Part shown: in pieces, positions 9,018 to 61,436 of the stretch | Layout of the letters: each line of letters opens with the position of its first letter | How positions within the stretch are numbered: the first letter of the stretch is position 1 | From: Marsupella aquatica | Lineage: Eukaryota; Plantae; Marchantiophyta | Reading direction: 5' to 3' | Assembly (NCBI GenBank): GCA_973895155.1 | Contig: OZ316899.1 | Span: 11,213,675-11,277,674, forward strand | Length of the DNA: 64,000 bases | The notes under the pieces: model-generated | Database searches by the model: none | Told to the model about the DNA's origin: nothing | The model's input: the letters and a program-made list of their open reading frames with translations, nothing else | Position numbers and translations under genes: made by a program

Positions 9018-9164
9018 TGTTATGAATACACAAGATGATAGTAGTCAATAATCCCCACTCACTTCCATTATGCCAAGGACTTATATAGTCCAGAAGGGTT
9101 AACATGGTTGGGTTAATGTTAACCTATCCTATACTAGGGTTAAGTCATATTATGGGTTATAACA
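9018..9164 (-). repeat. 5' LTR of copia-1 (147 bp)
   Basis: Identical to 3372-3518; followed by TSD ATCGC. Confidence 0.97.
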
Positions 9165-20006: not shown

Positions 20007-20133
20007 TTTTTGGCAACCATACTGGGGAATGCCTCTTTGAGGGGTTCCATGAGAAGGAAGCTGCTAGTACTTGCAGCCCGAACCAAGAAACAGTTGGAGA
20101 CAGATCAAGAAGTGAGTTCAACAGAAGAAAAAC

Positions 20134-20716: not shown

Positions 20717-20887
20717 ATATTGTTCCAATGGAGCACATAGTCTCAGTTAAGTAAAGGAGATGGTATCAATCTTGTATGTACTGAGATCGCAAAATTATTA
20801 TTCAATTACCACAAATTTTTGGAAACAACTTTACAATGAAGTTTGTGAATGGTGATTCTTTAAATCTTGATTAAGTGCAATCAATAG

Positions 20888-23800: not shown

Positions 23801-26800
23801 GCTTAGTGTTACCCTTTGGATTATGTAATGGACCCAACACGTTTCAAAGGCTTATGATGATGCTGTTTCATGAATACTTAAATCAATTCATGCAAATTAA
23901 ATATTTCTTGATGATTTTACAATTTATGGGGATGAAGAACAGCACATAAACCACCTAAGATTATGTCTGTTAAGATGTAGAGAAGGAGGAGTTAGTTTAA
24001 ACCTAGACAAATGTACATTTTTTTTACCATCAGGGAAAATATTGGGTCATATTGTATGCAAACAAGGTCTATTAGTAGATCCTGACAAAATTAAAATTAT
24101 AAAAGAAATGCCAGTACCCACAAGTGCAACACAAGTGAGAAGGTTTTTAGGAAGTGGAGGCTTCTATCGACGCTACGTTAAAGGTTACTCGCAAATCAGC
24201 GCTCCTTTAGCGCGATTGATGGGTAATCATCAAACTTTCAACTGGGACGACAACTGTCAGAAGGCTTTCAAAGAAATTAAGGAACGGCTGTGTCACACGC
24301 CAATACTCAAAGAGCCGGATTGGAAAAAGGAGTTCCATCTGCACACCGATGCATCATTGGTAGCAGTGGGAGCGATATTGGCCCAAATAGGAGAACAGGG
24401 TATAGATTTACCCGTTTATTATGCAAGTAGGTTACTAAATGTGCATGAAAAGAATTATACCACCACTCAAAGGGAAGCATTGGCCGTGATTTTCGCTATG
24501 AAGAAATTCAGACACTACTTGCTAGGAAACCATTTTGTATTCTTTGTAGACCACAACGCCTTGGTTAACTTAGTAAACAAACCTCAACTATCGGGAAGGA
24601 TAGCCAGATGGATTCTTTTGTTGGCAGAGTTTGATTACACCATTATTTACAAACCAGGAAAAACACATATTATACCAGATTATTTAAGTAGGCTAGAATC
24701 GGGGGAGGTATCTACAGTGGAAGATGATCAACTACCTGACATGGGATTATTTCAAGAGGAAAAGAAAGACTACCCGGTAAAATTGGTTACTTTGGATGAT
24801 GGAACCAATTTAGAGAGATATTTACGAACAGTTGAGTTTTCGGAAGGATTATCCAGTAAGGAAAGAAAAATATATGCATATAGGGCCAAGCTTTACACTT
24901 TGATTAATCATACGCTTTATTACAAAGGACCAGATGACATACTCAGAAGAGTGGTACCTGATGACGAGAAGCAAGAAGCATTAGTAACAGCTCACGAAGG
25001 TTTAGGAGGAGGTCATTTTGGTGCAGAAATCACCGTGAGGGAAATATTGCAACAAGGACAATGGTGGAGAACAATGCACAAGGATACCCGAGAATTTGTT
25101 TAAACTTATGATTTGTGTCAACGTACAGGGCCAATCAAAGAAAGTATGGAGTTCAGGCCAATTATTGCCCCTTATATTTTCCAAAAATGGGGATTGGATT
25201 TTATTGGACCAATAACACCACCTTCTAGGTTCAGTCAGAATCATTACATTTTAGCAGCAACATAATACACCACTAAATGGGTGGAGGCAGTAGCAACTTG
25301 CGAGAATACGGCCAATGTAACTGCAAAGTTTTTATATTAAAATATCATTACAAGGTATGGATTACCATGGGAGTTAGTAAGCGATCAAGGAACGCATTTT
25401 CTGAATAACACCATTCAGGAATTGACGGACAATTATCATATCAACCATCGGTTTTCAACCCCTTACTATCCACAATGCAACGGGCAAGTAGAATCCATAA
25501 ACAAAGTTCTACTAAATGTTTTAAGAAAAGTGATTAACGAGCAGCAGAACTACTGGGATGTACAACTACCAGCAGCCGTATGGGCACTTTGTACAGCGTA
25601 TAAAGTAACCATGGGACACACTCCATTTCAACTTATGTTTGGAGTAGAGGCTTGAATGCCATTGGAATATGAATTGCCAAGTCTACAAGTGGCCACAGAT
25701 TATGATATCAACAAAAATCCAAGTTTAACCCAGCGACTAAGAGAGTTGATGGAACTTACAGAGAAGAGAAGAAACGCAGAGGAACATTTGGAACATGTAC
25801 AAGGACAACGGAAAAGATGGATAGATGATCAGAGAGATATCACAATATTCTTTGAAAGAGAATTAGTGTTATGGTGCAGGAAAAAGGGCTCGCATAAAGA
25901 AAGGAAAATTAAAACTCAAATGGGAAGGGCCATTTATTGTACATAAGGTATGGGGTAATGGAACTTTTGATATCGCTAGTCAGGATGGAAGCGAGCAACA
26001 GCTAGTTAATGGAAACAAGCTCAAATCATATCACGTTTGAGATGATGTGTACTTAAGGGAGGTGGAGGATATCGTCAATGATCACGATGAGGAGGACGAC
26101 AGGGAGATTGTGCAAACATTAATTGTCACAATTAATCTACGGATTATCCCAAAGATGAGACAAGATGTTCCATCACAAAACAATAAAAGGACGAGTTAAG
26201 TAATCATATGGTAGCTTGCATGACTATCACTAATCAAGAGGTAAAAGATGGAAACACGAAAGGAAAGCTATCACACAAAAAGAAGGCGGAAGGTACAACA
26301 ACACAAATTAGAGAGGGGTCACGATCATACAAAGATACACAACGATTAACGGAAAAAGAACCGGACGGGAAAAACAAGGAATTAGTGAAGTACATGAATG
26401 AACCGACATCAGGTTTAAAAACCTCAATTCATATAAACCCGTATCAGATTCAGTCGGTTACGCTATCTAAAGAAGATCTATCTAAAATTTTCCACATTAA
26501 TGACTGGAGGTGTATAGTGACCAATTGGCGTGAGGAAAGAAGAAAGCCGTCTCCCTATCAGGCGGTAGTTATAGGCTGCACTAACGAACATACTTTGACA
26601 TGGATGGCCATGGATACTATACTCAACCATAATGCCATCCCCTGTATTGAGAATTGTGGTAAGTGGAATAATACTTATGTATGTAATTCTATCCTTAAAT
26701 ACCAAGATTCGGTCCCGTAAAGAATAAACAAAGCGATTTACCAAGGTTTTGTGATGTTCAAAATCTTCAAGCAATTTCTTTGCTGTTTTTCCTTATATAA

Positions 26801-29800
26801 TCCTGAAATGATTATTATATCACAAATGTTGAAATGAACTTCCTTAGGTTCAGCTTCTTCTCGATAGATTGAAAGGTTTTCTCTTCCCTCTAACTTCCTT
26901 ATACACTTATTAGTGATTGATTTTACGTCATGAAGGTTGGTACAATTCCCATTTCAACTAGATTTCAAAGGCACACCTTAGTTGTCCATTCAATTCTATT
27001 TCCTACAACTAATTCAAACATCAAAACTTGAATACTTAAGTTTGATCCATGAAATGTTTGAAATGCAATTGACGTGAGTGGTACAAGTCTTCTCCATTAA
27101 ATTCTTTCTCCTAAGCCCAATTTGACATGAGAAAAAGACCCACACTTGGTCAAAAATCAATGTTGAAGAAAAGACAATGAATCATGATCTTGGGAGTCCA
27201 CTTGTAAGGCTCCCTCAAAAGGTTTGAGATGCCAAAAGGTTTAGAAGCCTAAAAACCTTTTCTCATCTAAACTTAGGGTCCTAAAAGGTAAAATAAGTCT
27301 AAGACTCTCTATATCTAATTCCTAAGGGTTTCCTAATCTAAGTCTCTCTATATCCTATTCTATCTAACTCATGGAAAGGCTCAAGAGGTGAGAAAAGAGA
27401 TAGAAAACAATTTAAGTAACATATGCCGAAAAACCATGGAGAATCGGTTTGGGTTATTTTGAAGTTGATCTTTTGGGACCAAACTGAAATTCTTTGTGTA
27501 GCCCTTGGTAAGAGCTTTCCAACGCACCAAAAATCTCTTAAAAACGTCATCGGACCGATCCGCAATCGTCCGTCAAAGTTGCTGCCAAAAGTCTAAGCCG
27601 ATTTTCCAACTTCCAAAGCGATTTCTTTCGGATTTCTTTGAAGGCGATTGTTTGTCTGAAGCGATTCTTCCTTCCAAACTCAAACTTTTTAGCTTTCTTC
27701 CATACCGTTCCTTTCAGGCTTAAAATAGATTAAGGGGTGACGGATAAACCTGAATAAGCTTCAAGTAAGGTTAAAATGTTTCAAAATGTACCACTTTCCC
27801 TCCATAGCTCCGTTTTACCATTCCACAAGAATCACTTAACAGGAAAGTTACATGTCTTGTTAAAAACACATGGAAGTTGGGCAAAGGGGAAGAGAAGCGA
27901 GACCTTGGAAACTATAAGAGCATTGCTAGATCAAAGATCCTACTTACGCCTGGCCAGGAAGTTGAGAGCATCAACGGAGTGGAGTGGTTATCAGAGAGAA
28001 CTGAAGTTCAAGTGGATTAGAGTTGACGCTAATCGTTATTTGTTGCCAGTGAAAATGAAGTTGATCATGCTCAAGAGGTCAGGATCATTTGAAGACAATA
28101 ACCCCAGGAAGAAGTTGACGGTGGCCTAGTTATTGGAAACACCAGCAATGGAAGGAAGTATCCCACAGGAAGATCTCAGTGCGGAGGCTATGGATCGCGA
28201 GGAGGGAGAGTGTTCCACAGAGGTGGAAGAGATGTTATAGGAAACAGAGGGTTACGAAGAAGGGGGAAAACTGACTGAAGAACAAGAACCGGAGGAGCAA
28301 AGACCGGAGGAAGCAACACCTATACAAGAGAAGCAGACGGCAGACTTGCAAGAAGCGATCATACAACAAGAAATACTTTTAAGAGGAGGTAATCGAGTTG
28401 AATCACAGGAAGGAGATGATGAAGAAGAATCAGACAGTTTGGATGAGAGACTATTAACGAGTACCAAGGATGAGCAGAGGGTCGAGGAATTGGAACCAGA
28501 GACAACAATGGATGACTTGATTGGAGGAGCAGAGGTGGATGTGGAGATCGTGGCAGTCAACGAAGCAACACCACCAAGCGCCGAAATAACGATTTCCAAG
28601 AGGTTAGGTTTGAGGCAGGCCAAAATGATTAACAAAAGTAAGGGTAAAGCGTGTAGTCAAGTAATCAAATCAGATGAGGAGGAAACTGAGGAGGAGTCTA
28701 CAAAAGAGGAAGAGGAACCAGTTGCCAAGTGCGGGAACAAAAAGCAAATGAAGAAAGATCGCAACGCAGGAAAACATGTTCTCAAGTTCGAAGGGATGGA
28801 ACTGCATATATTGGAAAACATGAGGAGGGATAGTCATAAACAGTTCTTGAGAAGTCAAGGGCTCGAAGAGTTTGTTTATTCAAAATGGGCAACAACCACT
28901 GATCTGACACCGAAATATTACAACAAGTTCATAACCACGTGGACGGCTTCAGGGAATCAGGGGCACTGCAAGGGACAACCAATCAAGACTAACTAGGGAA
29001 CGTTGCAAGAACTATTCAGGTTGCCAACCAGAGGAGCTGAAATCAAGAAAATGATGGGGAAAACATGGTAGCCGGCTTCGTTTCCCCAACACAAAGAAGT
29101 TGATGACACCAGACGCGACAGTGCACAGATGATAAGATTAAAGAGAGATTAGAGTTCGTGACTCATGCATTGCACTGGAAGCACCAAGGTTGGAGTACCC
29201 ACAATTCATGATAAAGATAGTGGAGGAGGACGATGGTAAGCAGAAGAATTGGTCATCATTTTTCCATGAGGGCTTTCAGTAAGCACTTAAACGAGCAAAG
29301 AAACTGATTGCAACCAGAAGCCATCTACCAATCAAAATTGAGTCACACTTTCAGGTTCTGATCGGAGAGCAATTAAAGAGGACGACCACTCAAGTACAGG
29401 GGAGCAAACCCCAGCTAATAATGGGAAAATTATGCACAACTGATGACCAAAAGAGCAAGAGTGCAGCTACGGAAGAGGAATCAACAAAAGGAGAAGAAGG
29501 ACCACAAATGAATCAGCGTGGAAACGGGAAGAAGCAAATCACAGAAGCAGCAAAGCATGAAACAACAGAGAAAAACCAAGGGGAGAAAGAAGAAAGCATG
29601 GACAAATCCCTCAATGATGGAGACCCGCGAGTAAGAAGGGCAACCGTGGATAGAAGTAGTACCGAGCTATAGAGGATACAGACATTAGGTACGCAATAGA
29701 AACTTGCTCCACACCTGAGGTACAAATGGTGCAAAGTGTAATTGGAATCGAGAAGCTGAGAGAAGAGATCAAAAACGTTAGAAGAAGCAGTATCTTCACC

Positions 29801-30481
29801 ACCATGGCGGGGAAAATCATTAGCCAAGTAGCAATCTACTAAGGGATGAGCAATTACCAACATTTCTGGAACAGTAGCGAAAAGGAATTCATTGCAGCAA
29901 ATGCAAAGGCGGAAGAGCTAGAGAAGAAAACATTGGAGAATCAACAAATTATGGAGAAGCTATCAATAGAAATAGAGAGGCTACAAAAGAAAGAGGATAG
30001 TATCGCAACTATCAAACGGGGATGGAGACACGAAGAAACTACCATGGAATCACTGGCGGAGTTTTAAGGCATGGGGACATTCCAAACTGGGGGCTTAACG
30101 GTAAACTACAAAGGTGTGACCACGGCAATTAGGGCAGCGATTGAAGTAGAGAAGATGGAGAACTGCAAAGCACAGCTGCAATCCAAAGCGAATGCCGATT
30201 CCTTGAGAGAAATTAAGAGATTACAGATTCAGCTCAAGGATACAGTGGGTAAACATCGAAAAGAGGCCAACAAATGGGAAAAAGAGCGGAAGGAGGTCAA
30301 GGAGATAAAGTTGAAATGGGAAGAATTGGATTCCCAACTACATCAAACCACGAATACAGCTCTACCGGGAGAAAGAATGCTAGGGGAAAACAAGGAAGTG
30401 CTCAACACCAAAATTGACCAATTGAGTAAACAATTGCACATGGCGAACGAGCGAATTGCACATGGTGAACGAGCAAAGTAA
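20888..30481 (+). pseudogene. Gypsy A gag-pol plus 3' extension; many stops and frameshifts
   Basis: LLDGGSVVN (PR), FLDGYSGYSQV (RT), HTDASLVAVGA (RH), STPYYPQCNGQ (INT); downstream fragments align with the element B extension. Confidence 0.92.
26655..27827. mobile_element. Solo LTR (1173 bp) of an unrelated family inserted in gypsy A
   Basis: TGTGG...CCACA ends, TSD AGAAT (26650-26654, 27828-27832). Removing it restores IPCIEN|HLTGKLHVLLK, matching element B. Confidence 0.88.
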
Positions 30482-31417
30482 AGAAATCATTATGGCACAA
30501 CCTAGAGATTTGTTCTTGAATGAGCACATTTGCTGAGGAAGTTTACAAGAAGAGATTGTGATTGAATGCGAGAGTAATAATTGAGAGTGAATGGATTTAG
30601 AGATTGAGAAGATGGAAAGTTAAAGAAAAGATTGAGTGAGACAGTCTGATAAATTCTGAATTATAAAGAAAGTTAAGCTTGTTGAAGTTACAATCAGAGA
30701 ATTAGAGAGAAGTATGTTAAGACGGTCATATTCCGACCGCAGGAATGAATGAGGGTCAACTCGCTCAGAGTGAGGACGTTGAGGTGTAATACCTTACGAA
30801 ATCAAATTAATAGACAACTCGTAAGCAGTAGAGTCTGGCTGGAGTTTGTGTGTTTTGAGGACAACCATCTAATTGTTTTACACCTCCAACATAACGGAGT
30901 AGTCGTTGAATTGATATTCTACTTACGAATAGCTTTTCTTGATCTACTTCATTACACACGCAATTGATCGACTCCCTGGTGGGTGAATCGATGAGATGAT
31001 TGGATCTAACCAGATCACAACCCCGGAAGCATGAGTCCTAATGACAAAGTTACGAAGAACTACTCACTAATTAGACTTAGGCCGATTGAACTGTGGATCT
31101 ATTCAATTGGTTTGCACCTGATTACTCGTCGACTGAGAGAGGAAAGTATTCCAATTTGCATTTTTACTTATCGTGAATGGTGCGGGTTTATAGAAATTGT
31201 ATACAGGGAAGGATTAGTGTTAACTGAGTCGATTGTACCCAAGAAGTGGAAAGAAGAAGTAGACATTGAAGAACATTCAGCGGAAATCACAGGTTGAGAG
31301 TATGAAAACGATTTACTAGATTATCCTGTTGTTGGACGATTAATCAGTTAATGCAAAAGCAAACGGGTATATAAGGGTTATGTTGTGTTAATTGCAGGGA
31401 AGAACTAGTGTTTAACA
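30475..31417 (+). repeat. 3' LTR of gypsy A, 5'-truncated; contains ORF2 (30749-30967) and ORF3 (31031-~31350)
   Basis: Matches only 19064-20006 of the 5' LTR; no PPT seen upstream. Confidence 0.9.
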
Positions 31418-31847
31418 TCTACACTTGGTTCATACACATAAACCCTAAACTATTCATATTTGGCCTTATGGAACTCTTGCCAACTACAACTCCCACTATG
31501 CACAAGCTCACATCAACAGAGAAAGGATACAAAATGCATACTTACTATGGCTCCAAAGTTGCAAGATCAAGCAAGTAGTCAAACACACTGAAACAAAGCG
31601 GGTGGCAGTTTCAGTATCTCAGGCAATGCAAGTTTTGTTCATTTTGCAAGGTTTCAATATTCAAACTTCATGGAAGGAAGATATCATTATGGGAGAGGTT
31701 GATCGTTAAAATGGAATATAGTGGCTAGGATTTCTGTAAACGGTAACATTACACCGGTTAAATTATAGTCCTTTAGTCTTAGAAGCGTCAGCCAGAAGTT
31801 AATCCAGGGTATTTAGGGAGCAGCACTCAAGGACCGGTAGCAGTTCA

Positions 31848-32462
31848 TTGCATCCTGCGGAAAGGCTAGAATTAGGGGAGGCGACGATCATTGCGATTAG
31901 TGGCCGGATAGGAGTAGAGTTCTGTTATGAAGGTTGCGATGGCTTTCTAGCAGATGGCAAGGTCTGTGCCTTAGGCACAAGGGCTCGACAAAAAAGACAA
32001 GAGGGGACCGACATGGGAACCCCTATTAGCCAAAATTGAGTAGGGCATAGGTGTAAACCGCTAGGCGAAGGAGTGCTTATGTTTATGTTCACCATTTGGG
32101 TGAAAGAAGGGAGCTGTCGTGGGTGGGATGAGGCCGGGCAACAATTGTTTGGAATGAAGGGCAAAGAGTTTCGTCAACGATTCACGACCAGTGGGGCCAT
32201 TGAGGAATTCTGCAGAAATGTCATGCAGAAGAAGTGGAATCTGGTACTAAGGCGGGATAACAACCGTGATCAACGGATTGCATGGCGATTAATCACCGCC
32301 GGTCAAGTAATTGTCGCCAACAAAGCGACTACCGCTAAGGAAGGGGACGATAACCTAAATGTCATTTCACACTTAGCAGGATTGGCGATCGAAAGTCCGG
32401 AAGCTTCCAGTTCAGGCGCCATCAAAGAAGAGAATCAAAGGCGTCGTTGCACAGTTCAGTAA
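31848..32462 (+). pseudogene. LTR ORF1 (RPA70-C-like), 5' LTR copy; TGA at 32037-32039, ATG lost
   Basis: ORFs 31848-32039 and 32073-32462 are one frame. Confidence 0.7.
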
Positions 32463-33042
32463 CCACGAGAATCTTCTTGACATGTAAACACGGTTCTTGG
32501 CTCGCTCATCGTTCTTGGCAGGAGACAATTAGAGTTTCTTGGCAGATTAGCGCAGGAGACCGTGGCTGAAGGGCAAACCGTCCAACTGAAGTCGGCGCGC
32601 CCCGGAAAGTAGTTAGAAACCTCAGCAAAGAACAGACGCGAGGCATAGGTATTTAGAGGCTGTGGAGCGCTAGGCGCTCTGTCACTTTTTGCTAGGAGCT
32701 TGGTTGAGAGGTAGAGCCGGACTCACCTCAAGATTACCAGCGTTTTGTATTAGTGTCCCTACTCGTTTTGAGTAGTTTTCGATTATAAAGAGATGTGTAT
32801 GAATGCAATAGAGTGCAGAGGAACTTTGTTACCTTGTGCTTGAGCGGTGAGTAAGAGTCCAGATTCAACGTTGGAAGAATGTTGTGAATCAAGTCAGAAG
32901 AAACAGTAACTTTGAAAGTCATTCGAAGAAGGAGAGGCATTCGTGATTAATACTGAGAGTCGAGGAGTGCGGTTATGGGAGTTCGCGCGAAGTACTCGTT
33001 AGGAACATGTGTTAAGTGATTAATCGTAAATTGCTGGGATGA

Positions 33043-33285
33043 ATGGAAATCGTCTCACTACGAGTGAGGACCTTACGGTTTAGCACGTTAAGGCAGCGAT
33101 TTAACAGACAGCTCATGGGAAGCAAGGTCTGGTTGGAGATTGTGTGTATCCAGGACGTGACCTTGGTCGTCGTACACCTTCAACATACAGGGTCAACCGT
33201 TAAACTGGGGTTCCTACTACGGATACCTCTATTTAAATTGCTTGATTTAGCCAAAGACAGATCGATTGCCAGGAAGGCCGATTGA
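33043..33285 (+). CDS. LTR ORF2, 80-aa hypothetical protein (also 44583-44825)
   Basis: Homologous in frame to 30749-30967, 19338-19556 and 60766-61026. Confidence 0.7.
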   Translation: MEIVSLRVRTLRFSTLRQRFNRQLMGSKVWLEIVCIQDVTLVVVHLQHTGSTVKLGFLLRIPLFKLLDLAKDRSIARKAD

Positions 33286-33327
33286 GGGACAGCAGGACCT
33301 ACCTCGGTCATTGCTACTATAACAACC

Positions 33328-33648
33328 ATGAATGTAGACAGTAAGGAGGACAAGCCTTGCTCCTTGATTAAGTTAAGACCACTGGAATTGTGGATCTGTT
33401 CCATCGGTTCCCACCTGATTACCAGAGCGTTACGCCAGGAGAGTATTCCCATCTGTTTAATTACTTACCGCTACTGGTGTGGGTTTATCGAGATCATCTA
33501 CAGAGAGGGTCTGGTGTTGACTGAAGCAGTCGTGCCCAAGAAGTGGAAGGAAGAGTTAGACATTATAGAGCACTTGGTAGGATTCACTTACAGGGACTAT
33601 ATAGAGGAAGAGGGGAGTACCCCGCTAGAATTTTGGTTGATCGTTTAA
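33328..33648 (+). CDS. LTR ORF3, 106-aa hypothetical protein (also 44868-45188)
   Basis: SLIKLRPLELW..IGSHLI, WCGFIEI.YREGLVLTE and VPKKWKEE conserved at 19620-19940, 31031-31350 and 61049-61369. Confidence 0.75.
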   Translation: MNVDSKEDKPCSLIKLRPLELWICSIGSHLITRALRQESIPICLITYRYWCGFIEIIYREGLVLTEAVVPKKWKEELDIIEHLVGFTYRDYIEEEGSTPLEFWLIV

Positions 33649-33718
33649 GCGGGAGATACTGCGAAGAAGGCAATTAGACGTCCATTAATCGCAAGTCAAA
33701 CTGGGCGTTTAACATTTT

Positions 33719-33736
33719 TGGCGACCATACTGGGGA
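33719..33736 (+). promoter_or_regulatory. PBS TGGCGACCATACTGGGGA (tRNA-Arg-like) after a TTTT spacer
   Basis: Starts TGG, 18 nt, near-identical at 20011-20028; resembles the tRNA-Arg PBS of Athila/Tat/Ogre-type elements. Confidence 0.8.
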
Positions 33737-33823
33737 ACGCCTCGTTGAGGGTTCCGAGAGAGGAGCAACTGCTACGACCAGCAGTCCGAACCAGGAGAGA
33801 GAAGAGCAAATCAAGAAGGGCGA

Positions 33824-34114
33824 ATGGGTGACATGAACTCACCAAAGGAGTTCTAGACGTTGTTCTATTTCGAGAAAGATGCCGAAGCAGCAATCATAAC
33901 GACACTGAACAAGAAAGAGCACTCGATACTGGCCAACGGAAGGAGCAATGCACGAGAAGGCGATGTTATGATAATCGCTTACACCACGCCCACACACACC
34001 AAGTTGGTACTTCGAGAAGCGCATGGCGGAACCTAGAACGTGAGGAGGCGGGCGATTCATTTGCAATCCTCTGTTTGGAGCAGTGTTTACAACAGCGACC
34101 ATGCCACCAAGTGA
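33824..34114 (+). pseudogene. Leader ORF4 of gypsy B (internal stops)
   Basis: KEF*TLFYFEKDAEAAIITTLN...GDV..IA.TT..HT.LV.REA aligns with 20134-20454. Confidence 0.6.
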
Positions 34115-34415
34115 TCGGTTACCCCAAGGCTACACGCAGTACCGCCTACCCAAGAGGAAGGAGGACCTTAGAAAGATCTTAGAGTGGTGTCGTTGGAATC
34201 GAAATGAGTACCCTGTTGCGATAGCATTCCAGATAGGCAGAATCGCTAGGAAATTAAGTTCTAAACTAGAGGAAACCACAGGGACTTGCCCAGGATGTAT
34301 GATGTGGAGTCAACATGACAGTTTTGAGTTTTCTATGTTAAAACAGTTATTAACGATGTGCTTTAACGAGGAACTCATGGCTCCAGAAGCCTGCACTCCT
34401 AGTTTAAGCGAATAG
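34101..34415 (+). CDS. Leader ORF5 of gypsy B, 104-aa hypothetical protein with a CxxC motif
   Basis: MPPSDRLP...LEWCRWNRNEYPVAIAFQIGRI...CPGC...QLLTMCF, conserved with 20402-20716. Confidence 0.7.
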   Translation: MPPSDRLPQGYTQYRLPKRKEDLRKILEWCRWNRNEYPVAIAFQIGRIARKLSSKLEETTGTCPGCMMWSQHDSFEFSMLKQLLTMCFNEELMAPEACTPSLSE

Positions 34416-34638
34416 GAGTCATTTCGCAGAGGGCATAGCCACAGTTAAGTAAAGGAGAGAGAGAAACTGATTAATAGAGGTCATAACATTAGTCAAGTAA
34501 AGGAGACAGTAGAAGGTCTCCATTTTTGTGAAAAGTAACGAGTAATAAGAACTTGACGCCACCTTTGTAAAGAAAACACCTGATCATCGAGTATATTGCT
34601 TGTAGGCAGAGAAAGGGCTTTGCTACCCCAAAAGATAA

Positions 34639-37600
34639 ATGGGCAAGATGCCCTTCAATCCCAACGAAGGGGAAATGGCAGGGGAGTTCGAACCTTTCCA
34701 AGAAAGCAGACCCAGACTTGAGGCCGAAGAACGAATCGAGAATTCAAGGACTCAAGATAAGGTCGAAGAAAACCTGGAAGAAGCCATGGAACGACTTAAA
34801 ATCCACCAAGGAGCTGGCAGTAGTTCAAGATCGGCTCCTACCAGAAGGGTTAAAATACCCATGTTCAAGGGAGCACCTGATGAAGATGCCGATACCCACT
34901 TAGCATGTTTCGAAGAAATGCTCAAAGCTAACCACGAACAGAACGACACAGCCCGATTAGAGCTGTTTCCCAGCTCGCTGGACAAGGAGGCTTTTGTATG
35001 GTACACTCAATACCCAGCTGACCATTTCAAAACTTGGCCTGATTTTTCAAAAGAATTCTTAGATCATTACAGAAGGGCTAAGGAAGAGTCCGATTTGTAT
35101 AGCATTCTGCAAAACATGACTCAGAAGAAAGGAGAACCACTACAGAACTATATTGGACGGTTAAAGGTAACAATGAGACGATTAACGAATAAACCGTCCG
35201 ATGGGCAACAAATTAGCTGGATGAGAAAGGCTGTGAAGGGGAGTCTAGTCACAGTGGTGGAACAAAATCCCACTTCTAATGCTGATGAATACGAGAAAAG
35301 ATTAATACGGCTAGAGGGCATTACTCAGATGCTTAACCAGGAAAAGAACGAGAGCAGTAAGGATGAAGAGAGGGTTAATCGGAAAACAGAAACTTCTAAG
35401 GTAGAAGTCAAGGAAAACCGAGAGCGAGGTGAGGTTAGTACTCGTAAATTCTGTGAAATACATATGAGGCCTGGACACACTACTCAGGAATGCAACCAAA
35501 ATCCTTTTAAAAAGAAACCTAGCCTAGGTGTAAATCAGGTAGGAACAAGCAAACAAGATGGGGATAGGATGGAGAGTAGCCAGGGATATTACAATCCTGA
35601 TCGTAACGCAAACCGAAGGCCTTATAAGGATGGTGGGGCTAAATACCCACCGATTTGCTATTACTGTCGACTAACCGGCCACATCAGGGGCCCCGATTGT
35701 GAATTATGGATGAAGCATATGAAAGAAAAGGAAGAAATAGCGGGGAAAGCCCCAGCACCTGTGAACACTGTGCAGGTGTCGACATATGTGGTGACAAGAT
35801 CTCAGGGGCAGCCAGAGGACTCAACCCCAACCAATCCCACGGAGACTGAGGGAGGATTCGATTGGAGCCAAATGGACGCAACCACACGAGAAATAGCGGA
35901 TGAAATTCGCCACAAACAGCAGAACAAGACGCTGCCACGGCCTGAACGATTAATGCGTTCAGACCCTTACACAGAGACGGATACTGAAATTCTAGAGGAG
36001 GGAGTGACGATGGGGGGATTCGATCAAGAAACGGGACAACTCCCACGAGACAAAGAACCACCGAATAACCCTGCCGAAGCGAACCAGCGAATAATGGATA
36101 AGCTAGTGCAACTCATCGCGAAGACCAGAGTCGACATCACTGTCGAGGAACTGTTCCAGTTAGCACCACAGTGCAAGGAAGCAGTAATGAGACGGTTGGG
36201 AGGCAGAATTAGTCCTACCACACTGCCAGGGGTACCACTGTACCAAGCTGGGAAGATTCCCCTGATCGACAAAGGAGCCGTAGTACAGATCAGCGTAAGG
36301 GGCATCAAACTGAAGAACGTATTGCTGGATGGAGGGTCAGCCGTAAACCTCATGAGTGAGCAGACCTACAGACTGCTAGGCAGAGTCAAGCTCTTACCGG
36401 CCCCTTTTAATCTGGTAATGGCCGATCAAAGCAGCTGTCACCCACTGGGTTACGTGCCAGACTTACCAATGCTGATTTCAGGCATCAAGTACAATTTAGG
36501 AGTGGTAGTTTTGAGAGAAGCAGATTCTACCCAAGGACAACCCATGTTGTTAGGACAACCTTGGCTAAGACAGGCCAAAGTAAAACAACACTGGGGGGAA
36601 GAGAAGGATTATATAAAAATAGAACACAGAGGAGAGACCTTCAAGATCAGGACCAAGGCCATCGAAGACGGTGTACCACCTATGGCCAGAGTCTGTACTT
36701 TGAACTGGGCAGAGGGGTTGAATGAGGATGAAGAAGAGACCTATTTAAAATGCCGTCTAGACTTAGTACCAATTTCAGATATGGAAATAGTCAAGCTCGA
36801 CAAGATGCAAGGAATGACCAGAGAAAAGATGGATCATGATCTACGAAATGATCTGTTTAAACACATAGACCCGCAAGGCATTCAGGAGTGCTCGTTAAAG
36901 GAGGAAGAAGCACAGACCACCTTGCAGGATCTAGCAGAGAAAGTGGTGGGATGGAGTGCCACCGAGGAAGAGCACATTCAGAAAGTCGATTTGAGTGACA
37001 CCGAACGACCGCGAGAAGTAAAGATAGGAAAACAGCTTTCCCCCGAGCTCAAAGAGGAACTTGTTACACTACTCACCAAATTCCGAGATGTTTTTTCCTG
37101 GGATTACACGGAGTTGAAGGGAGTACCAGAGTCAATTGGCGTACATCAAATCCGACTCGTACCAGGGTCAGTACCGGTGCAGACGCAACGATATAGGATG
37201 AACCCCAACTATGCGGAAAAGGTAAAAGAAGAAATCCAAAGGCTCCTTGATGCCAAATTCATTGAACCCGTTAAGCGTTATACGTGGCTATCTCCGATAG
37301 TCGTAGTACCTAAGAAAAATGGGAAGTTGAGAGTCTGCATTGATTTCAGAAAATTAAACGCAGCTACCATAAAAGACCCTTTTCCAGTACCATTTCTAGA
37401 AGCAGTTCTGGATGTGGTAGCAGGAAAATCAGCTTATTCATTTCTAGATGGGTACAGCGGGTACAGTCAGGTCCGGTTAGCAACAGAAGCGAGGGAGCTA
37501 ACCACTTTCATTACGGAATGGGGCGCTTTCCAGTGTCTCGTATTACCCTTTGGATTATGCAATGGGCCTAGTACATTTCAGCGATTAATGATGATGTTAT

Positions 37601-40600
37601 TTCATGAGTATTTGAATCAGTTTATGCAAATCTTCCTGGATGACTTCACCATATACGGAGAGGAAGAGCAACACATAGGCCACCTCAGATTATGTCTCTT
37701 AAGATGTAGGGAAGGGGGAGTCAGCCTGAACCCTGATAAGTGCACCTTCTTTGTACCATCGGGCAAGATATTAGGACACATAGTTTGTAAACAGGGCTTG
37801 TTAGTAGACCCAGATAAGATAAAAATCATTAAAGAGATGCCAGTCCCCAATAGTGCAACCCAAGTCAGAAGGTTCTTGGGAAGTGGAGGTTTCTATCGTC
37901 GTTACATCAAGAGTCACTCCCAAATCAGTGCCCCATTGGCACGATTAACGGGTAACCATCAAACGTTCACTTGGGATGACGACTGTCAGAAAGCGTTTGA
38001 AGAAATCAAGGACCGGTTGTGCCATGCACCCATACTCAAGGAACCAGATTGGAAGAAGGAGTTCCATCTACATACAGATGCCTCTCTGGTGGCGGTGGGA
38101 GCGGTGTTGGCACAGAAGGGAGAACAAGGTATCGATTTACCAGTATACTATGCCAGTAGACTGTTAAACGTGCATGAAAGGAATTACACTACGACCGAGA
38201 GAGAAGCGTTAGCCATGATATTTGCCGTAAAGAAATTCAGGCATTATTTACTCGGTAATTGCTTTGTGTTTTATGTAGACCACAATGCCTTAGTCAATTT
38301 GGTAAACAAACCGCAGTTGTCAGGCAGAATAGCAAGGTGGATTTTACTGCTAGTAGAATTCGATTACACCATCATTTATAAACCAGGGAAGACCCATGTT
38401 ATACCCGATTATCTTAGTAGATTAGAGTCAGGAGAGACCTGTAAGGAAGGGGATGATCAATTGCCTGATATGGAGTTATTCCAAGGCGATCAAGAGACAT
38501 ACCATGTAAAACTGGTCACCTTAGATGACGAACCGGCGTTAGAAAGGTATTTACGCACAACAGAATACCCTGACGGGTTATCCAGTAAAGAGAGGAAAAT
38601 CTATGCATACAAGGCGAGGCCCTATACTTTAATCAACCACGTGCTTTATTACAAAGGGCCGGATGATATACTACGAAGGGTCATCCCAGAAGAGGAGAAG
38701 CAGGAAGCCTTGATCGCGGCACATGAGGGGCTAGGCGGAGGACATTTCGGCACCGAAATCACCATAAGGAAGATTCTGCAGCAGGGACGCTGGTGGGTAA
38801 CGATCCATAAGGACACTCGGGAGTTTGTGAAGACTTGCGATTTGTGTCAGCGAACGGGCCCAATAAAAGAAAACATGGAATTCCGGCCCATAATAGCGCC
38901 GTACATCTTCCAGAAATGGGGATTGGACTTCATCGGGCCCATTACCCCACCTTCCAGGTATAGCCAGAATCAGTATATTTTGGCAGCAACGGAGTACACA
39001 ACGAAATGGGTAGAGGCAGTCGCAACTCGCGACAACACCGCGCGAGTAACGGCTAAGTTCATATATCAAAACATCATTACGAGGTATGGATTATCGGGGG
39101 AACTGGTAAGCGATCAGGGGTCGCACTTCATGAACAAGGTCATCCAGGAGCTAACCGACAACTATCATATCAGTCACCGGTTCTCAACGCCCTACTACCC
39201 GTAGTGTAACGGACAAGCAGAATCAACGAATAAGATTCTACTCAATGTTTTACGGAAAGTGATTAACAACCAACAGAACGATTGGGACGTTCAGCTACCC
39301 GCCGCAGTATGGGCATTCCGAACGGCGTATAAGGTAACCACGGGCCACACTCCCTTTCAATTAATGTTTGGAGTAGAAGCTCATATGCCAGCAGATTACG
39401 AACTTCCCAGTCTGCAAATCGCCATCGGGTACAACATTAATCATAATCCGTCTTTAAGGAAACGATTAAGGACATTACTGGAGGTAACCGAAACCCAAAG
39501 GAAGGCTGAAGAACGATTAGAATATGTACAAGGACAATGCAAACGACGGATAGACGATCAACGGGATGTCACCACGTTCACTGAAGGAGAATTGGTACTT
39601 TGGTGCCGGAAAAGGGCACGCATAAAAAAAGGGAAGTTAAGACTTAAGTGGGAAGGGCCTTTCACTATACTCAAGGTATGGGGGAATGGAACCTTCAAAA
39701 TTGCCAGCCAGGACGGCAGCGAGCAGCAGCTGGTGAACGGGAACAAAATGAAGACATATCACGTTAGAAACGACGTGTACTTGCGGGAGGTAGAAAGCGC
39801 GGTTAACGACTACCTGGACGAAGACGATGGCGGAAATGACCACGATGCAGTACCAACACGGGCCGAGGATAGCGACCGCTATCAACCGTTAACAGCTACA
39901 CGAAACCGGAATCAAGTAGGGTTAGGGGAGTACCAATCATCTCCCAGAGTCGTGGCTTGTATAAGCGTGGCTCCCTACCCCGCAGCGGCGGAGACCACAA
40001 AAGGGGAAGAACTACCGGCGCACACAGGACCATCCTTGGCTCGCCCGGCCAGGCCAAGTACCACCTCTAACCACTATCGACAGCAGCGAAGGGACCAAAC
40101 AAACGAACAAGTACGGACAGCAGCGATTAAGGGATGTACGCTAGCAGATTACGTGAATGAAGTAGTCCCATCAAGCGGACCGTTTAGTTCAGCGAAGACA
40201 AGCCAAATCAAATCAATTGTACTAGCAACAGAAGATCTATCGGAGATATTTCAAGTTCATGATTGGAAATACAAACTAACGAAAGGACAGGAAGAAGAGC
40301 GGGAACGATTTCCGTATAGGATAGTGATCGTAGGGTGTACTCACGGAAAATCATCCACCTGGATTGTGGATCGGATACTGATAGGACCTAACTCAATACC
40401 GTGCATAGAGAACTACACCACGGGAAAATTACATGTGCTTCTAAAAGCTTACGAGATGGGGGAGTCCGAGAATCAAATACCCCTATCAGCAGGGGAGTTG
40501 CTAAGACGGAAACCCTATTTGCGGTTGGCGCGGAAGCTATGAGTGACTGCAGAGTGGAGCGGCTATCAGCGAGCACTGAGGTTCGAGTGGACAAGAGTGG

Positions 40601-43203
40601 GGAGCAAATATTACACATTGCCTATAGGAATGAAGGTAGTAACCCTCAAGAGAGCAGGCAAATTTGCAGACAAGTACCCCAGGAAACGCACGACGATGGC
40701 AGAACTGCTAGAAACGCCAGCCATGGAAGGAACGACGTCATACACAGAAGAAGAACATGCGAAAGGAATGGAAACAGAGGTGCAAGAAGTCCTCACGGAC
40801 ACGACTATTAACGATCAAGGAGTCGTCGGGAAGCAGCCACCGATCGCCGATAGTGTAGCAGGAGCGGAGACGGAAATGGGAGAGCAAGAACTCAAAATGG
40901 AGCCGGGGTCCGCGCGGCAGGATGTCGAAGCAGAAAAGGAAGTGCCGATCAAGGTACCAGAAGCTCAGGTCGAGAGGTTGGAGGTGCTGTCAGTGGGGAA
41001 CGAAGGACCGCAGGTAAAACAAAAATTTACGCTTGCAGATTGGCTGACCAAAACCGACTCGGAGGTGGAGATTGCGGCAGTCACAGCAGCCATACTTGAG
41101 GAATCGACGCCTCCCAACACGAAGAGAACTCGCCCGAACAAGGTGAAATTTATTAACAAGGAACGGCCCAAGAGGAGAGCGACCGATTCAGAGAAGAAGA
41201 AGGCCAAGATAATCAAACCCGAGGAGGAAAAAGAAGAGAGTAGCTCAGCCAGCGAGGAAGAAGAGCTTGGCAACGAAACAACAGTCCAGAAGAAGAAGTC
41301 AGTTGGATCGAGTAGGGCCCGTCCGAGGGAAGTTTTCCATGTGCTTAAATTCGAAAGGATGGAGCCCCATATCTTGAAGAACATGAGTGACCCAACTCAC
41401 CGGAAGTTCTTACGGTCGCAAGGATTAGAGGATTTTGTGAATTTGACGTGGAGTGTTCCAACTAAGCTACAAGCCGAGAACTACAGCAAATTCATCTCCA
41501 CGTGGAGGCCCACCGAGAACCAAGGGAGATGCAGGGGGCAAATCATCAAGACCGACCCTCGGACATTGCGTGAGTTATTCAGTTTGCCAGAGCGAGGAGC
41601 GGAAATTAAGAAGCGGATGGGGAAGACCTGGCAGCCCGCCTCATTTCCACAGCACAAGGAGGTAGATGACACATGAGGCTATCAGACCAAACACTGCACT
41701 AATGAGAGAATCAAAGAAAGGTTAGAATTCGTTACCCATGCCCTGCATTGGAAACGACCTAGGTCAGAGTACCCAGGATTCATGATAAAAATCATGGAAG
41801 AAGGGAGTGGTAAGCAAAAGAACTGGTCAGCGTTTTTATATGAGGGATTCCATTCGGCGATTAAGCGAGCTCAGCGATTAATAAGTAGCCAGAGCAGTTT
41901 GCCGGTAGAAATTGAATCGCATTTTCAAGTTTTAATAGGAAGTCAACTAAAGGAAGGAGGTAGCAAGAGAGGAAGTCCAGTAGTAGCACGACCCAAGACC
42001 GCAGACAAGACAGAGAAGGTCGAACCGACCGAGAAGCGCAAGAGCGCAAGGCAGGACGACAATGCATACGAGGAAGATAATCAACTAGGAGACGATCGAT
42101 CGCCAATGCGAGTAACGAGGAGGACGGTCACGGAGCAGCCACCAACGAAGGACCAGGAGGGACCAGCTGAAACCAGAAAGTACTCGACGGCAGCGATTGA
42201 AGACGAGGATCTTAATTACGCTTTATCAGCGATTAGAGAAAAAGAGGCACAACTAGTACTGCAGGATGGAGGATTGGAAGGGCTACTAGCTGAGATCGAA
42301 ATGGTACAAAAGAATAGCATTTTCAACGTCATGGTGGGACAGATCGTCAGTCAGATGTCAATTTATCAGGGGATACAAAGTGCTCTATTACAGTTGCAGT
42401 GGGACAAGCATGAAGAAGACATGGCAAGGAAGTTAGCCCAGCAGGAAGAATCGACAAAATGGGCAGTAGAGGTCGAAGGGACGATTAAGAAGTTACTCAC
42501 CCGAAATGCAGAGTTGTTACAAGAAAACGATCAATTAGCGACTAGTGAACGAGGATGGAGGCACGAAGAAACAACCATCAAAGACTTAGCCAAATTCCTG
42601 GGCATCGAGAAGATACAAGCAGGGGGGTTAACAAGCAACTATAGGGAAGTAATCGCGGCCATCCGAGCAGCGATTACCACGGTAAAGATGGAGAAACGAA
42701 AAGCCAACCTACAGACGGAGCAGGGTATAGAGAAGCTAAAGGAGATCGAGAAGTTGAGACTCCAACTCAAAGAAGAAGCAGCACAACAACAGAGCATAGC
42801 CAGCAAGTGGGAAGTTGAACGCCAACGTGTAGAAGAACTGAAGCATAAAATCAAGGATCTGGATACACAACTCAGCCAAGCCACCTTACAAGGGGATCCG
42901 ACGACGGCTTCAGGAGAATCCACGCTGGAGACCGCAAGGTATAAAGAAGCAGCCGAAAGTAGGATCGATCAATTAGAAGTACAACTTGCAGACGCCTTGA
43001 AACAACGACCAGAGGGGGACGAAGTGAACGGGGAGCTGGAACAGCTCAGGTCAGAGCATGACCAATTGTCACAAGAATTGGAAGACAAGGAAAGATCTAT
43101 TCTAGATCTCAAGTCGGAGGTGAGGAAGCTCAAGGCACAAGTCCGAACACAGATCACCCCAATTAAGAAACCAGGTGTTAGCGGGGGCAATGGAGTCGAA
43201 TAA
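34639..43203 (+). CDS. Gypsy B gag-pol plus ~1100-aa extension in one frame (2855 codons, three internal stops)
   Basis: Gag with CEIH..GH...C and CYYCRLTGHIRGPDC, PR LLDGGSAVN, RT FLDDF, RH HTDAS, INT HEG..GH/CDLC and DDE. The four ORF-track segments share a frame; stops at 39202, 40540 and 41674. Confidence 0.93.
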
Positions 43204-43265
43204 GCAGCAACGATTACCGAGCAATACGGACATCAAGGGCGAGTCCGTAGGTAAGTAAAGGAGGA

Positions 43266-45254
43266 TGTAAACGGTAACATTACACCGGTTAAATTATAGT
43301 CCTTTAGTCTTAGAAGCGTCAGCCAGAAGTTAATCCAGGGTATTTAGGGAGCAGCACGCAAGGACCGGTAGCAGTTCATTGCATCATGTTAGAATGGCGG
43401 AAAGGCTAGAATTAGGGGAGGCGACGATCATCGCGATTAGTGGCCGGATAGGAGTAGAGTTCTGTTATGAAGGTTGCGATGGCTTTCTAGCAGATGGCAA
43501 GGTCTGTGCCTTAGGCACAAGGGCTCGACAAAAAAGACAAGAGGGGACCGACATGGGAACCCCTATTAGCCAAAATTGAGTAGGGCATAGGTGTAAACCG
43601 CTAGGCGAAGGAGTGCTTATGTTTATGTTCACCATTTGGGTGAAAGAAGGGAGCTGTCGTGGGTGGGATGAGGTCGGGCAACAATTGTTTGGAATGAAGG
43701 GCAAAGAGTTTCGTCAATGATTCACGACCAGTGGGGCCATTGAGGAATTCTGCAGAAATGTCATGCGGAAGAAGTGGAATCTGGTACTAAGGCAGGATAA
43801 CAACCGTGATCAACGGATTGCATGGCGATTAATCACCGCCGGTCAAGTAATTGTCGCCAACAAAGCGACTACCGCTAAGGAAGGGGACGATAACCTAAAT
43901 GTCATTTCACACTTAGCAGGATTGGCGATCGAAAGTCCGGAAGCTTCCAGTTCAGGCGCCATCAAAGAAGAGAATCAAAGGCGTCGTTGCACAGTTCAGT
44001 AACCACGAGAATCTTCTTGACATGTAAACACGGTTCTTGGCTCGCTCATCGTTCTTGGCAGGAGACAGTTAGAGTTTCTTGGCAGATTAGCGCATGAGAC
44101 CGCGGCTGAAGGGCGAACCGTCCAACTGAAGTCGGCGCGCCCCGGAAAGTAGTTAGAAACCTCAGCAAAGAACGGACGCGAGGCATAGGTATTTAGAGGC
44201 TGTGGAGCGCTAGGCGCTCTGTCACTTTTTGCTAGGAGCTTGGTTGAGAGGTAGAGCCGGACTCACCTCAAGATTACCAGCGTTTTGTATTAGTGTCCCT
44301 ACTCGTTTTGAGTAGTTTTTGATTATAAAGAGATGTGTATGAATGCAATAGAGTGCAGAGGAACTTCGTTACCTTGTGCTTGAGCGGTGAGTAAGAGTCC
44401 AGATTCAACATTGGAAGAATGTTGTGAATCAAGTCAGAAGAAACAGTAACTTTGAAAGTCATTCGAAGAAGGAGAGGCATTCGTGATTAATACTGAGAGT
44501 CGAGGAGTGCGGTTATGGGAGTTCGCGCGAAGTACTCGTTAGGAACATGTGTTAAGTGATTAATCGTAAATTGCTGGGATGAATGGAAATCGTCTCACTA
44601 CGAGTGAGGACCTTACGGTTTAGCACGTTAAGGCAGCGATTTAACAGACAGCTCATGGGAAGCAAGGTCTGGTTGGAGATTGTGTGTATCCAGGACGTGA
44701 CCTTGGTCGTCGTACACCTTCAACATACAGGGTCAACCGTTAAACTGGGGTTCCTACTACGGATACCTCTATTTAAATTGCTTGATTTAGCCAAAGACAG
44801 ATTGATTGCCAGGAAGGCCGATTGAGGGACAGCAGGACCTACCTCGGTCACTACTACTATAACAACCATGAATGTAGACAGTAAGGAGGACAAGCCTTGC
44901 TCCTTGATTAAGTTAAGACCACTGGAATTGTGGATCTGTTCCATCGGTTCCCACCTGATTACCAGAGCGTTACGCCAGGAGAGTATTCCCATCTGTTTAA
45001 TTACTTACCGCTACTGGTGTGGGTTTATCGAGATCATCTACAGAGAGGGTCTGGTGTTGACTGAAGCAGTCGTGCCCAAGAAGTGGAAGGAAGAGTTAGA
45101 CATTATAGAGCACTTGGTAGGATTCACTTACGGGGACTATATAGAGGAAGAGGGGAGTACCCCGCTAGAAGGTCGGTTGATCGTTTAAGCGGGAGATACT
45201 GCGAAGAAGGCAGTTAGACGTCCATTAATCGCAAGTCAAACTGGGCGTTTAACA
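43266..45254 (+). repeat. 3' LTR of gypsy B (1989 bp), with ORF1 43394-44002, ORF2 44583-44825 and ORF3 44868-45188
   Basis: Direct repeat of the 5' LTR, preceded by PPT, followed by TSD. Confidence 0.97.
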
Positions 45255-59470: not shown

Positions 59471-61436
59471 TGTAAACGGAAAAATTAATTAAGTAGAAAT
59501 TAGTAGCAAAACTCCAAGAAGAAGGCAACGGATAGAGTATTAAAGAAGTGTAGTAGTAGTCGTGAACAATTCTTGAGAAGATGGCTGGAACAGTAAATTA
59601 GAAAGCGCAACAATCCTTGCTATATGGGGTAATGTAGGGTTAGGGTTTTGTTACGAAGGGTGCAATACAAAGTTAGGCGATGGTAGAGACTGTGCTTTAG
59701 GCATAAGAGCAAGACAAAGAAGACAAGTAGGGGAAGTGCAAGGGAATGTTCTTAGCAGAAATCAAAACAATCATATATGCAAACCTGCGGGAGAAGGGAA
59801 ACCCATGTTTCGGTTTATGATTCGAGTCTTAGAAGGAGACTGTCGTGTATGGAACGAGACAGGGCAACAATTATTTGGAATGGATGGTGAGGCTTTCCGA
59901 TGACATTTTACTACCAAGGAAGCTGTTGAAGAATTTTGCAAGGGAATCATGTTATCAAAGTGGAATCTAGTGTTGGGTCAAGAAACCGACCATCGACAAC
60001 GTATTAGCTGGAGGTTAATCGCTGCAGAACGAGTGATTGTTTTCCAGAATATAGTTGAAGCAGGAGAAACATAGGACGTTTATAATTTAACCTTATAGAT
60101 GAGGAACCTAACTGTTAGCAGTTATGAGGTTATGGCTCCGACGACAAACCATTCGTGGAGATGTGTCGTGCAATAACCGCAGGGAGAAGTTGAGTAATTG
60201 CGGGTAGCAGTTGAGTAGCCAAGGCACGTAGTAATTGCAAACAAGCAGTTCAATAACCGTTAAGCAGTTATGTTTGATCAAACATTCGGAGGACACTTTT
60301 GGTAGTATCGCGGAATAGTTGAGAACCGTTAGATCTCGTTGGAACGATAGTATTTAGTCTTGCAATAGTGGAAGGCAAGATGTCACTTATTGCATTAGGA
60401 AATCTGGCTGAAAGGTGAAGCCGTGCTTCCTTGAGATTTCCAGTAGCTTTGCGGAAGTGTTCCCCACTCAGTATGAGTAGAATTTTGAATTCAGAAGTAA
60501 AGAAGTTATGTTGCGAGACAGCCGACGTTGATTATAAATGAATGTCAATTGATGTTAAGAGATGTGAGAAAAGAGTGAGTCTGAATGTGAGAGTATGACT
60601 AACAAGTGGATGTTGTGAGAGAGAGAAGAGTGGTTGTGGTTGAAAGGTACAATCCAATAGGTGAGATTTAACAAGAGAGTTGCGCCTGTTGAAACTGTAA
60701 CCTTAGTAAGAGAATTACATGAGATGGAAATCGTTAAGTCGGTTAATCATTAACCGCAAAGATATATGAAGATTAACTCACTTTGGGTGAGGATTTTGAG
60801 GTATAACACCTTAAGAAGTCAATTTAACAGACAAATAGTGCAAAGCAGAGTCTAGTTGGAGATTGTGTGTTTTGAAGGTGACAATCTAGTCATCATACAC
60901 CTCCATCATAAGGGAGTCATTGTCAGATTGGTGTTTCTATTACGGATAGCCATTCTTGAATTACTCCATCATATACGAAATGGATTGATTACTTTGGAAG
61001 AGAATCAAGAAGACAATTGGATCTGACGCGATCACAATTCCAGGAAGAATGAATCTTGATAACAAGGAAAAAGGGAATCGCTCACTAATTAAACTGAGAC
61101 CAATAGAACTGTGGGTTTGTTCGATTGGTTCACATTTGATTTCCCGTTGGTTGGAGGACACGAGTATTCTGATTTGCATTTTCACTTACCGTGAGTGGTG
61201 TGGGTTCATAGAGATTGTGTATTGAGAAGGATTAGTTTTGACCGAGTGTATTGTACCTAAGAAATGGAAAGAAGAGGTAGATATTGAAGAACTTCTGGCC
61301 AAAATCACAGATCAGGAAAGTGAAAATGAGTTGACAAGTTATCTTTTAGTCGGACGGTTAATTGTTTAATAGAGAAATGAACGGGTAGAAGAACGTTAAT
61401 CATCCGTTAATTGCATGGAAAAATAGGTGTTTAACA
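59471..61436 (+). mobile_element. Solo LTR (1966 bp) of a third family related to gypsy A/B, with degenerate ORF1 (59581-60074), ORF2 (60766-61026) and ORF3 (61049-61369)
   Basis: TGTAAAC...TTTAACA ends, flanks TCAAA/TCAAC (4 of 5 match), no PBS; translations align with the LTR ORFs of A and B. Confidence 0.9.

Follow-up and report, generated by a model that had tools for sequence, protein, structure and literature searches.

Transposable elements and retroviruses carry additional genes in three separately known settings: the U3 genes of retroviruses, the extra ORFs of plant gypsy elements and the RPA genes of Helitrons. In retroviruses, genes such as nef and MMTV sag are ORFs that lie within the LTR and precede its main promoter. 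Large plant OTA gypsy elements carry accessory ORFs under selection (PMC6317226, PMC7264820, Retand PMC11963269, Retrosat2 ORF0 PMC3485330); in the portions of these papers that were available, such ORFs are placed internally or 5′ of gag-pol, and none is described inside an LTR or as RPA-like. Survey classes of extra ORFs are defined by 5′ or 3′ position in the element (PMC6317226), and plant LTRs have been described as non-coding (PMC13192763). The plant Helitron homologs of RPA (PHRPA), according to the available part of PMC4683698, are likewise RPA-like genes on plant transposons; they encode multi-domain proteins (472 aa in Mothra), belong to rolling-circle DNA elements and have been reported only from monocots and dicots. 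Finally, CERV of Caenorhabditis elegans Cer1 and HIV-1 Rev are element-encoded accessory proteins, each of which pairs a Cys/Arg motif with an export signal that is either proven or a candidate. To export its genomic RNA, the nematode LTR retrotransposon Cer1 depends on a protein that it encodes itself, in which a Cys loop is combined with a candidate export signal; CERV has parts in common with Gag and is made from a spliced RNA (available passages of PMC10309623). In plants, according to a 2025 review (PMC12786077), there have been no direct studies of the RNA export of LTR retrotransposons.

We analysed a 64-kb stretch of liverwort DNA (64,000 nucleotides; hereafter the window), in which the LTRs of a gypsy retrotransposon, element B, contain three ORFs. 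ORF1, ORF2a and ORF2b fill 1173 of the 1989 bp of its 3′ LTR, so that 59% of the LTR is coding; retroviral U3 genes differ in their animal hosts and unrelated proteins. What is unusual here is this three-gene LTR. Our literature search, which covered titles and abstracts of mostly open-access papers, found neither an RPA-like or other ORF nor several selected genes inside a plant LTR, and the available part of PMC3627910 yielded no passage on RPA. The main features of element B are the following.

31735..45254, + strand: element B, complete Ty3/gypsy retrotransposon, ends TG...CA, target site duplication (TSD) ATTTC on both flanks
31735..33714, + strand: 5′ LTR, carrying copies of ORF1, ORF2a and ORF2b
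33719..33736, + strand: putative primer binding site (PBS)-like sequence
34639..40542, + strand: gag-pol, in the order gag, RT, RNase H, integrase
40543..43203, + strand: 3′ extra ORF, ~886 codons, one stop
43254..43265, + strand: polypurine tract (PPT), directly 5′ of the 3′ LTR
43266..45254, + strand: 3′ LTR, 1989 bp, TG...CA

The LTR pair (23 substitutions and one 9-bp indel between the two copies), the 5-bp TSD, the PBS, the PPT and the RT-RNase H-integrase order identify element B as Ty3/gypsy. No tRNA gene was found in the 64-kb window, and the PBS-like site has no tRNA partner there. The integrase is interrupted by one stop, and gag, as read in translation, has an apparent zinc knuckle of its own (CYYC...GH...C). 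The C-terminal half of the 3′ extra ORF is a coiled coil, and the ORF has no family match. A domain search found neither an extra RNase H nor a chromodomain; the absence of a chromodomain, the 3′ extra ORF and the large size are features of OTA elements without an extra RNase H. Since Tat lineages of liverworts are reported to lack the extra RNase H (available parts of PMC10508981 and PMC13468544), this domain content fits a possible placement in Athila or in the liverwort Tat Z lineages (Tat Z1/Z2).

Two diverged LTR lineages besides that of element B are present in the window.

18457..31417, + strand: element A, gypsy, TSD TCTAC
18457..20006, + strand: element A 5′ LTR, with ORF1 at 18565-19125 and broken ORF2a (19338) and ORF2b (19620)
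30476..31417, + strand: element A truncated 3′ LTR, ORF1 deleted, ORF2a intact at 30749-30967
59471..61436, + strand: solo LTR, TSD TCAAA/TCAAC with one mismatch

The polyproteins of A and B are 75-86% identical, with saturated synonymous sites. Element A has suffered two deletions, one (at 19036-19040) of ~400 bp of the 5′ LTR, taking the ORF1 tail and the main promoter, and the other (at 30475-30476) of the internal 3′ end together with ORF1 of the 3′ LTR, where ORF2b, from 31031, has one stop. A long 3′ extra ORF is common to A (28241-28996) and B (40543-43203), at 40% identity. The solo LTR contains a decayed ORF1 (from 59581, with an early frameshift and stops), ORF2a (60766) and ORF2b (61049). 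An earlier note on this DNA had spoken of three gypsy families; for the solo LTR, which has no internal region, the status of a separate family is judged from LTR divergence only.

ORF1 lies in the first ~740 bp of the LTR, with its own ATG about 110-130 bp inside it.

43394..44002, + strand: ORF1, 202 codons, predicted RPA70-C-like OB fold with an Arg-rich insert and a tail
31857-32462, + strand: ORF1 copy in the element B 5′ LTR, one stop, 9 bp including the ATG lost

This ORF at the start of the LTR, and its homologs at 18565 and 59581, were all found as the earlier note had described them. All four copies in the window are damaged, the one at 43394 by two in-frame stops (43577 and 43718). 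That of element A is stop-free but homologous only to ~19036 (about residue 157), with a foreign tail beyond because ~400 bp of its 5′ LTR are deleted. Amino acid identity is 70% between A and the solo LTR and 46% between A and B, over 152-158 gap-free columns. The protein alignment of the three lineages contains no indels, against 13 in about 200 aligned bases 3′ of the ORF. Differences at codon positions 1/2/3 number 29/23/58 (A-solo), 59/57/95 (A-B 3′ LTR) and 43/45/82 (B 3′ LTR-solo). The roughly twofold enrichment at third positions agrees with the earlier note, whose wording that differences fall "largely" there was a little strong, because third positions make up about half of them. The dN/dS ratio, proposed there as a check, is 0.154 between A and solo (bootstrap 0.09-0.26) and 0.122 between B and solo, hence 0.12-0.15 and far below 1; dS is saturated in the A-B comparison. 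Four control frames gave 0.95-1.5; on the antisense strand, the frame that shares the codon register of ORF1 gave 0.30-0.37 with 4 stops per copy. These results show that ORF1 is a coding frame under purifying selection.

The damaged state of all four copies, and the many fragments among the homologs described below, would suit a captured host gene fragment that sits passively in the LTR without a role for the element. Against this stands the strong purifying selection seen when lineages with nearly saturated synonymous sites are compared, a dN/dS that largely refutes such a passenger. The two stops, moreover, are mostly absent from related sequencing runs (four runs, from two studies and two organisms): at the second stop (43718), contigs of 4/4 runs have a sense codon at full depth, and at the first (43577) 3/4 runs show a sense codon at full depth, while in the remaining run it accounts for 82% of the depth. 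We regard a passive fragment as very improbable. In the same runs, a sister subfamily aligns from 43400 onward with an ATG at the matching place, and low-depth frameshifted relatives of A are present.

The 3′ half of the LTR, too, showed differences with codon periodicity, and translation of it then revealed two further frames.

44583..44825, + strand: ORF2a, 80 aa, intact
44868..45188, + strand: ORF2b, 106 aa, intact
33043-33285 and 33328-33648, + strand: ORF2a and ORF2b of the element B 5′ LTR, both intact

Both have their ATG at the matching place in 5/5 copies. The ORF2a proteins of different lineages share 51-62% identity (dN/dS 0.16-0.23), those of ORF2b 64-70% (dN/dS 0.14 for A versus solo; dS is saturated against B). 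Four control frames gave 0.75-1.3 with many stops, and the antisense in-register frame 0.22-0.39 with 3-4 stops per copy. ORF2a and ORF2b are therefore further LTR frames under purifying selection and belong to no known family: ORF2a has no match in Pfam, NCBIfam or the PDB (best PHROGs E 0.19), and ORF2b no usable one in Pfam, the PDB, PHROGs or the ESM Atlas. One metagenome match to ORF2b (L001) lay off frame in a gene rich in Pro and Thr, and was discarded as due to chance. In B and A, a stop codon lies directly 5′ of the ORF2a ATG.

We then considered what ORF1 encodes, which the earlier note had read as an OB fold like RPA70 DBD-C, with its zinc ribbon. An AlphaFold model of the core from element A (157 residues, alignment of 71 sequences) had a pLDDT of 89.2 and a pTM of 0.81; an earlier model from 4 sequences only was unusable (pLDDT 40). 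The top five Foldseek rows were RPA70 C domains (E 2.6e-5 to 2.5e-4), with TMq of 0.59-0.62 on RPA large-subunit C domains and 0.63 on 1l1o. We also ran VIA-align, once on the Foldseek matches and once on an independent set of 48,161 representatives; in the latter, RPA70 C domains again took the top three rows. The best match was human RPA70 458-604 (Z 12.1, rmsd 3.9, 133 aligned), followed by Ustilago RPA (Z 11.7-11.8), Teb1 OB-C (11.2, tied with the human domain because the Z scores lie within 1) and yeast RPA (11.0), while plain SSB/PriB folds reached Z 8.9 or less. Over the whole 157-residue model, the predicted fold is thus like RPA70 (RPA1) DBD-C, Teb1 OB-C and the Pot1 C-terminal OB, as the earlier note had proposed for DBD-C; both outcomes by which that note could be refuted, a missing OB-fold match and a dN/dS near 1, thus turned out otherwise. 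In the viral structure library nothing matched at E <= 0.001, PDB sequence searches yielded no relevant match, and the window copies matched no Pfam family. PF08646, which the earlier note had named for comparison, is the sole Pfam family matched by more than one ORF1 family member, but by only 4/71 and weakly (best E 0.024, 14.9 bits, below the curated cut-off of 28.5 bits); the predicted fold superposes on DBD-C, and the Pfam score falls short.

Part of the model is a zinc-type insert after the first strands, a feature shared with RPA70 DBD-C.

43475..43594, + strand: predicted zinc-ligand codons (C28 at 43475, C38 at 43505, H65 at 43586, C67 at 43592) and Arg-rich insert

All four ligand residues are present in 43/63 rows and at least three in 60/63, and this C-C-H-C site probably binds zinc. 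Arg 45, 48, 60 and 62 are conserved in the insert, and the median charge of the core is +3. The zinc ribbon of the RPA70 C domain consists of four cysteines. The ORF1 site is of the zinc type, as the earlier note had it, yet C-C-H-C; the Cys of FCY, part of the motifs that note listed, occurs in only 12/62 rows and does not belong to the conserved set of C28, C38, H65 and C67. Compared with DBD-C, the protein also stands alone, with a long Arg-rich insert and a detached tail helix; ORF1 begins with an ATG of its own, and the DBD-F, A and B domains that would lie upstream of a C-like domain are absent. Solved RPA70 C domains are only 9-12% identical to it, so low a value that it also speaks against a passively captured host fragment. 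Thus, the ORF1 product is predicted to resemble RPA70-C but is not an RPA70, given the sub-cut-off Pfam score, the low identity and the C-C-H-C site. It differs from PHRPA in being single-domain and in lying in a retrotransposon LTR.

The close structural matches of the model are all DNA-binding proteins, and the best are all ssDNA-binding domains, as would be expected if ORF1 encoded an ssDNA chaperone for reverse transcription that, inside the particle, covers strong-stop DNA or cDNA or helps it to anneal; the tail would then serve only for cytoplasmic retention or as a tether. That plant Helitrons carry RPA homologs (PMC4683698, available part) points the same way. The gag of element B, though, appears to retain its own zinc knuckle, and ssDNA binding in RPA is dominated by the A and B domains (available part of PMC8210275), which ORF1 lacks. 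A chaperone is a serious candidate but, in our judgement, an unlikely one.

The conserved tail and ORF2a/ORF2b, which the earlier note had missed, lead us to a mechanism other than the strand-transfer or RPA-mimic roles considered there.

43901..43930, + strand: tail motif with class 1a nuclear-export-signal spacing (B residues 170-179, hydrophobic, spaced 3-2-1)

The motif lies behind the fold, after 10-69 unconserved linker residues. Peptides with 3-2-1 spacing are called class 1a export signals (PMC4596688, available part). We took the spacing from the example peptides of that paper, because one sentence among its available passages prints a different spacing. Among 85 proteins, 26 have 20 or more tail residues behind a core that extends into its last third, and 16/26 tails show class 1a spacing against 2.7 expected by shuffling. 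Without 9 Riccia-type rows the count is 10/17 against 0.9 expected, whereas heptad spacing occurs in 2 of the same 17 tails (0.8 expected) and the reversed pattern in 0 (1.0 expected); the related class 1b spacing is enriched, at 9/17. These counts are to be read with a pattern chosen after the tails had been seen and with homologs that are not independent. Identity among the proteins with tails is low, 25-45% for the most part, and rises to as much as 57% in three pairs. The motif is missing from 10/26 tails, one of the 10 non-Riccia matches (P0035) lies at the fold edge, and chance produces the pattern as well, as it did in 3/5 other window sequences tested. In the solo LTR the pattern is kept, with a stop inside. 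The tail spacing thus appears conserved beyond chance, and a motif on an unconserved linker in diverged proteins is what would be expected of a linear docking signal; export activity itself is a conjecture from this spacing.

We tentatively favour, at somewhat less than an even chance, the view that the ORF1 product is a Rev-like single-strand-binding RNA export adaptor. The OB fold and basic zinc insert would bind the single-stranded RNA of the element, for which we assume a preference for RNA, and the export-signal-like tail would dock an exportin, so that the element RNA leaves the nucleus. By analogy, a single-strand-binding fold with a basic zinc insert and a detached tail is the layout of a Rev-type adaptor; the fold differs from those of CERV and Rev, and for ORF1 export is a proposal. 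RPA itself can bind ssRNA weakly (PMC8210275, available part). If the proposal is right, ORF1 would be a concrete candidate for a factor in the RNA export of plant LTR retrotransposons.

In RPA, the trimerisation helix lies directly behind the barrel. The matched domain belongs to the trimerisation core of RPA, and the tail could instead be a displaced trimerisation helix that pairs with host RPA32/RPA14 or with ORF2a/ORF2b, making ORF1 an RPA mimic or part of a private mini-RPA that disturbs silencing or serves integration; three small genes per LTR would echo the three RPA subunits. RPA2 is needed for silencing in Arabidopsis, where RPA2 mutants release it (available part of bioRxiv 10.1101/2023.04.11.535823). 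The 10-69 variable residues that part the tail from the fold argue against this arrangement, as does the lack of a Pfam match for ORF2a and ORF2b within the listed E-value range and of profile-profile similarity among ORF1, ORF2a and ORF2b, a weak test with such shallow alignments. In proteins of the Riccia type, a longer amphipathic helix has the motif at its end, which also fits an oligomerisation helix (heptad spacing in 8/26 tails overall). On balance we consider an RPA mimic or mini-RPA rather improbable.

To place ORF1 among known proteins, a profile built from its four copies was searched against 1.84 billion protein representatives, with 87 matches; three of these (P0007, P0028 and P0080) are repeat proteins, false matches that were removed from the family ahead of the counts. 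Lookup of 30 of the 87 gave Calypogeia fissa for 5, Riccia sorocarpa for 6, a JGI hypothetical protein for 1 and no name for 18, so that all relatives named to species among these 30 come from liverworts (two species). Each genome has several diverged and often truncated paralogs, many of them fragments, a pattern that fits a mobile origin. The location in an LTR is shown for this window, the relatives being known from protein records. Word-index protein searches added no new relatives, and none was found in metagenome scans. No Pfam entry exists for ORF1 and its relatives, which would form a new branch of RPA-like proteins with a single domain. In five Riccia sorocarpa gene models (P0024, P0025, P0037, P0054 and P0085), and possibly in P0068, the ORF1 domain stands behind coiled-coil and RING-like parts, which may reflect either a genuine gene fusion or an error of gene prediction; a search of the longer models showed no RPA domain, and their upstream parts have no significant similarity to the 3′ extra ORF of element B (best BLAST E 0.024, in the coiled coil).

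Expression of the three ORFs would depend on where transcription starts within the LTR.

44190..44227, + strand: TATA-like and initiator-like pair, predicted main LTR promoter, start near 44224
43341..43347, + strand: second TATA-like motif, 53 nt upstream of the ORF1 ATG in B

The initiator-like sequence lies about 34 nt downstream of the TATA-like one (both judged against consensus sequences), and the spacing is kept in B and the solo LTR amid indel-rich sequence. Because this predicted promoter is downstream of ORF1, ORF1 would lie in U3, in line with the U3 placement of the earlier note; the U3/R/U5 borders are themselves putative. For the same reason, expression of ORF1 would require either a separate start site, with a promoter at the 5′ end of the LTR, or an RNA through the 3′ LTR that is spliced or subgenomic. 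The motif at 43341, the same 9-mer as the main one in B and with a similar counterpart 42-43 nt upstream of the ORF1 ATG in A and the solo LTR, might speculatively be that promoter; in each of the three lineages, the ATG is flanked by A at -3 and by G at +4. A splice-donor-like GTAAG is located just upstream of the PPT in B (43248-43265), and relatives of A have one in the corresponding position; splicing from it to an AG upstream of the ORF1 ATG would, speculatively, excise the PPT. ORF2a and ORF2b, downstream of the main promoter, would be in the 5′ leader of the genomic RNA, where in B seven ATGs of short frames precede them.

A bolder and doubtful extension of the export adaptor is that the LTR is a self-contained three-gene cassette, with ORF1 as an RPA70-C domain turned into a Rev-like, exportin-dependent RNA export factor, under its own promoter at the 5′ end of the LTR, and ORF2a and ORF2b as its partners. 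If so, each element would carry two copies and leave one in every solo LTR. Whatever the proteins do, a coding share of 59% in an LTR, kept under purifying selection, raises the possibility that LTR genes have been overlooked, and solo LTRs could spread accessory genes.

Other mobile DNA surrounds these elements. An ORF with a SET domain (12114-12947; PF00856, E 5.8e-6), possibly a transposon-borne histone methyltransferase, is located just upstream of CACTA transposase pieces (13214-15996). Two copia-type elements lie on the minus strand (3372-9164 and 50871-56301); their LTRs are short (147 and 192 bp) and 100% identical within each element, so the insertions are very young. A cluster of inverted, internally repetitive 70-100 bp segments at 57525-58631 may represent the ends of a small DNA transposon.
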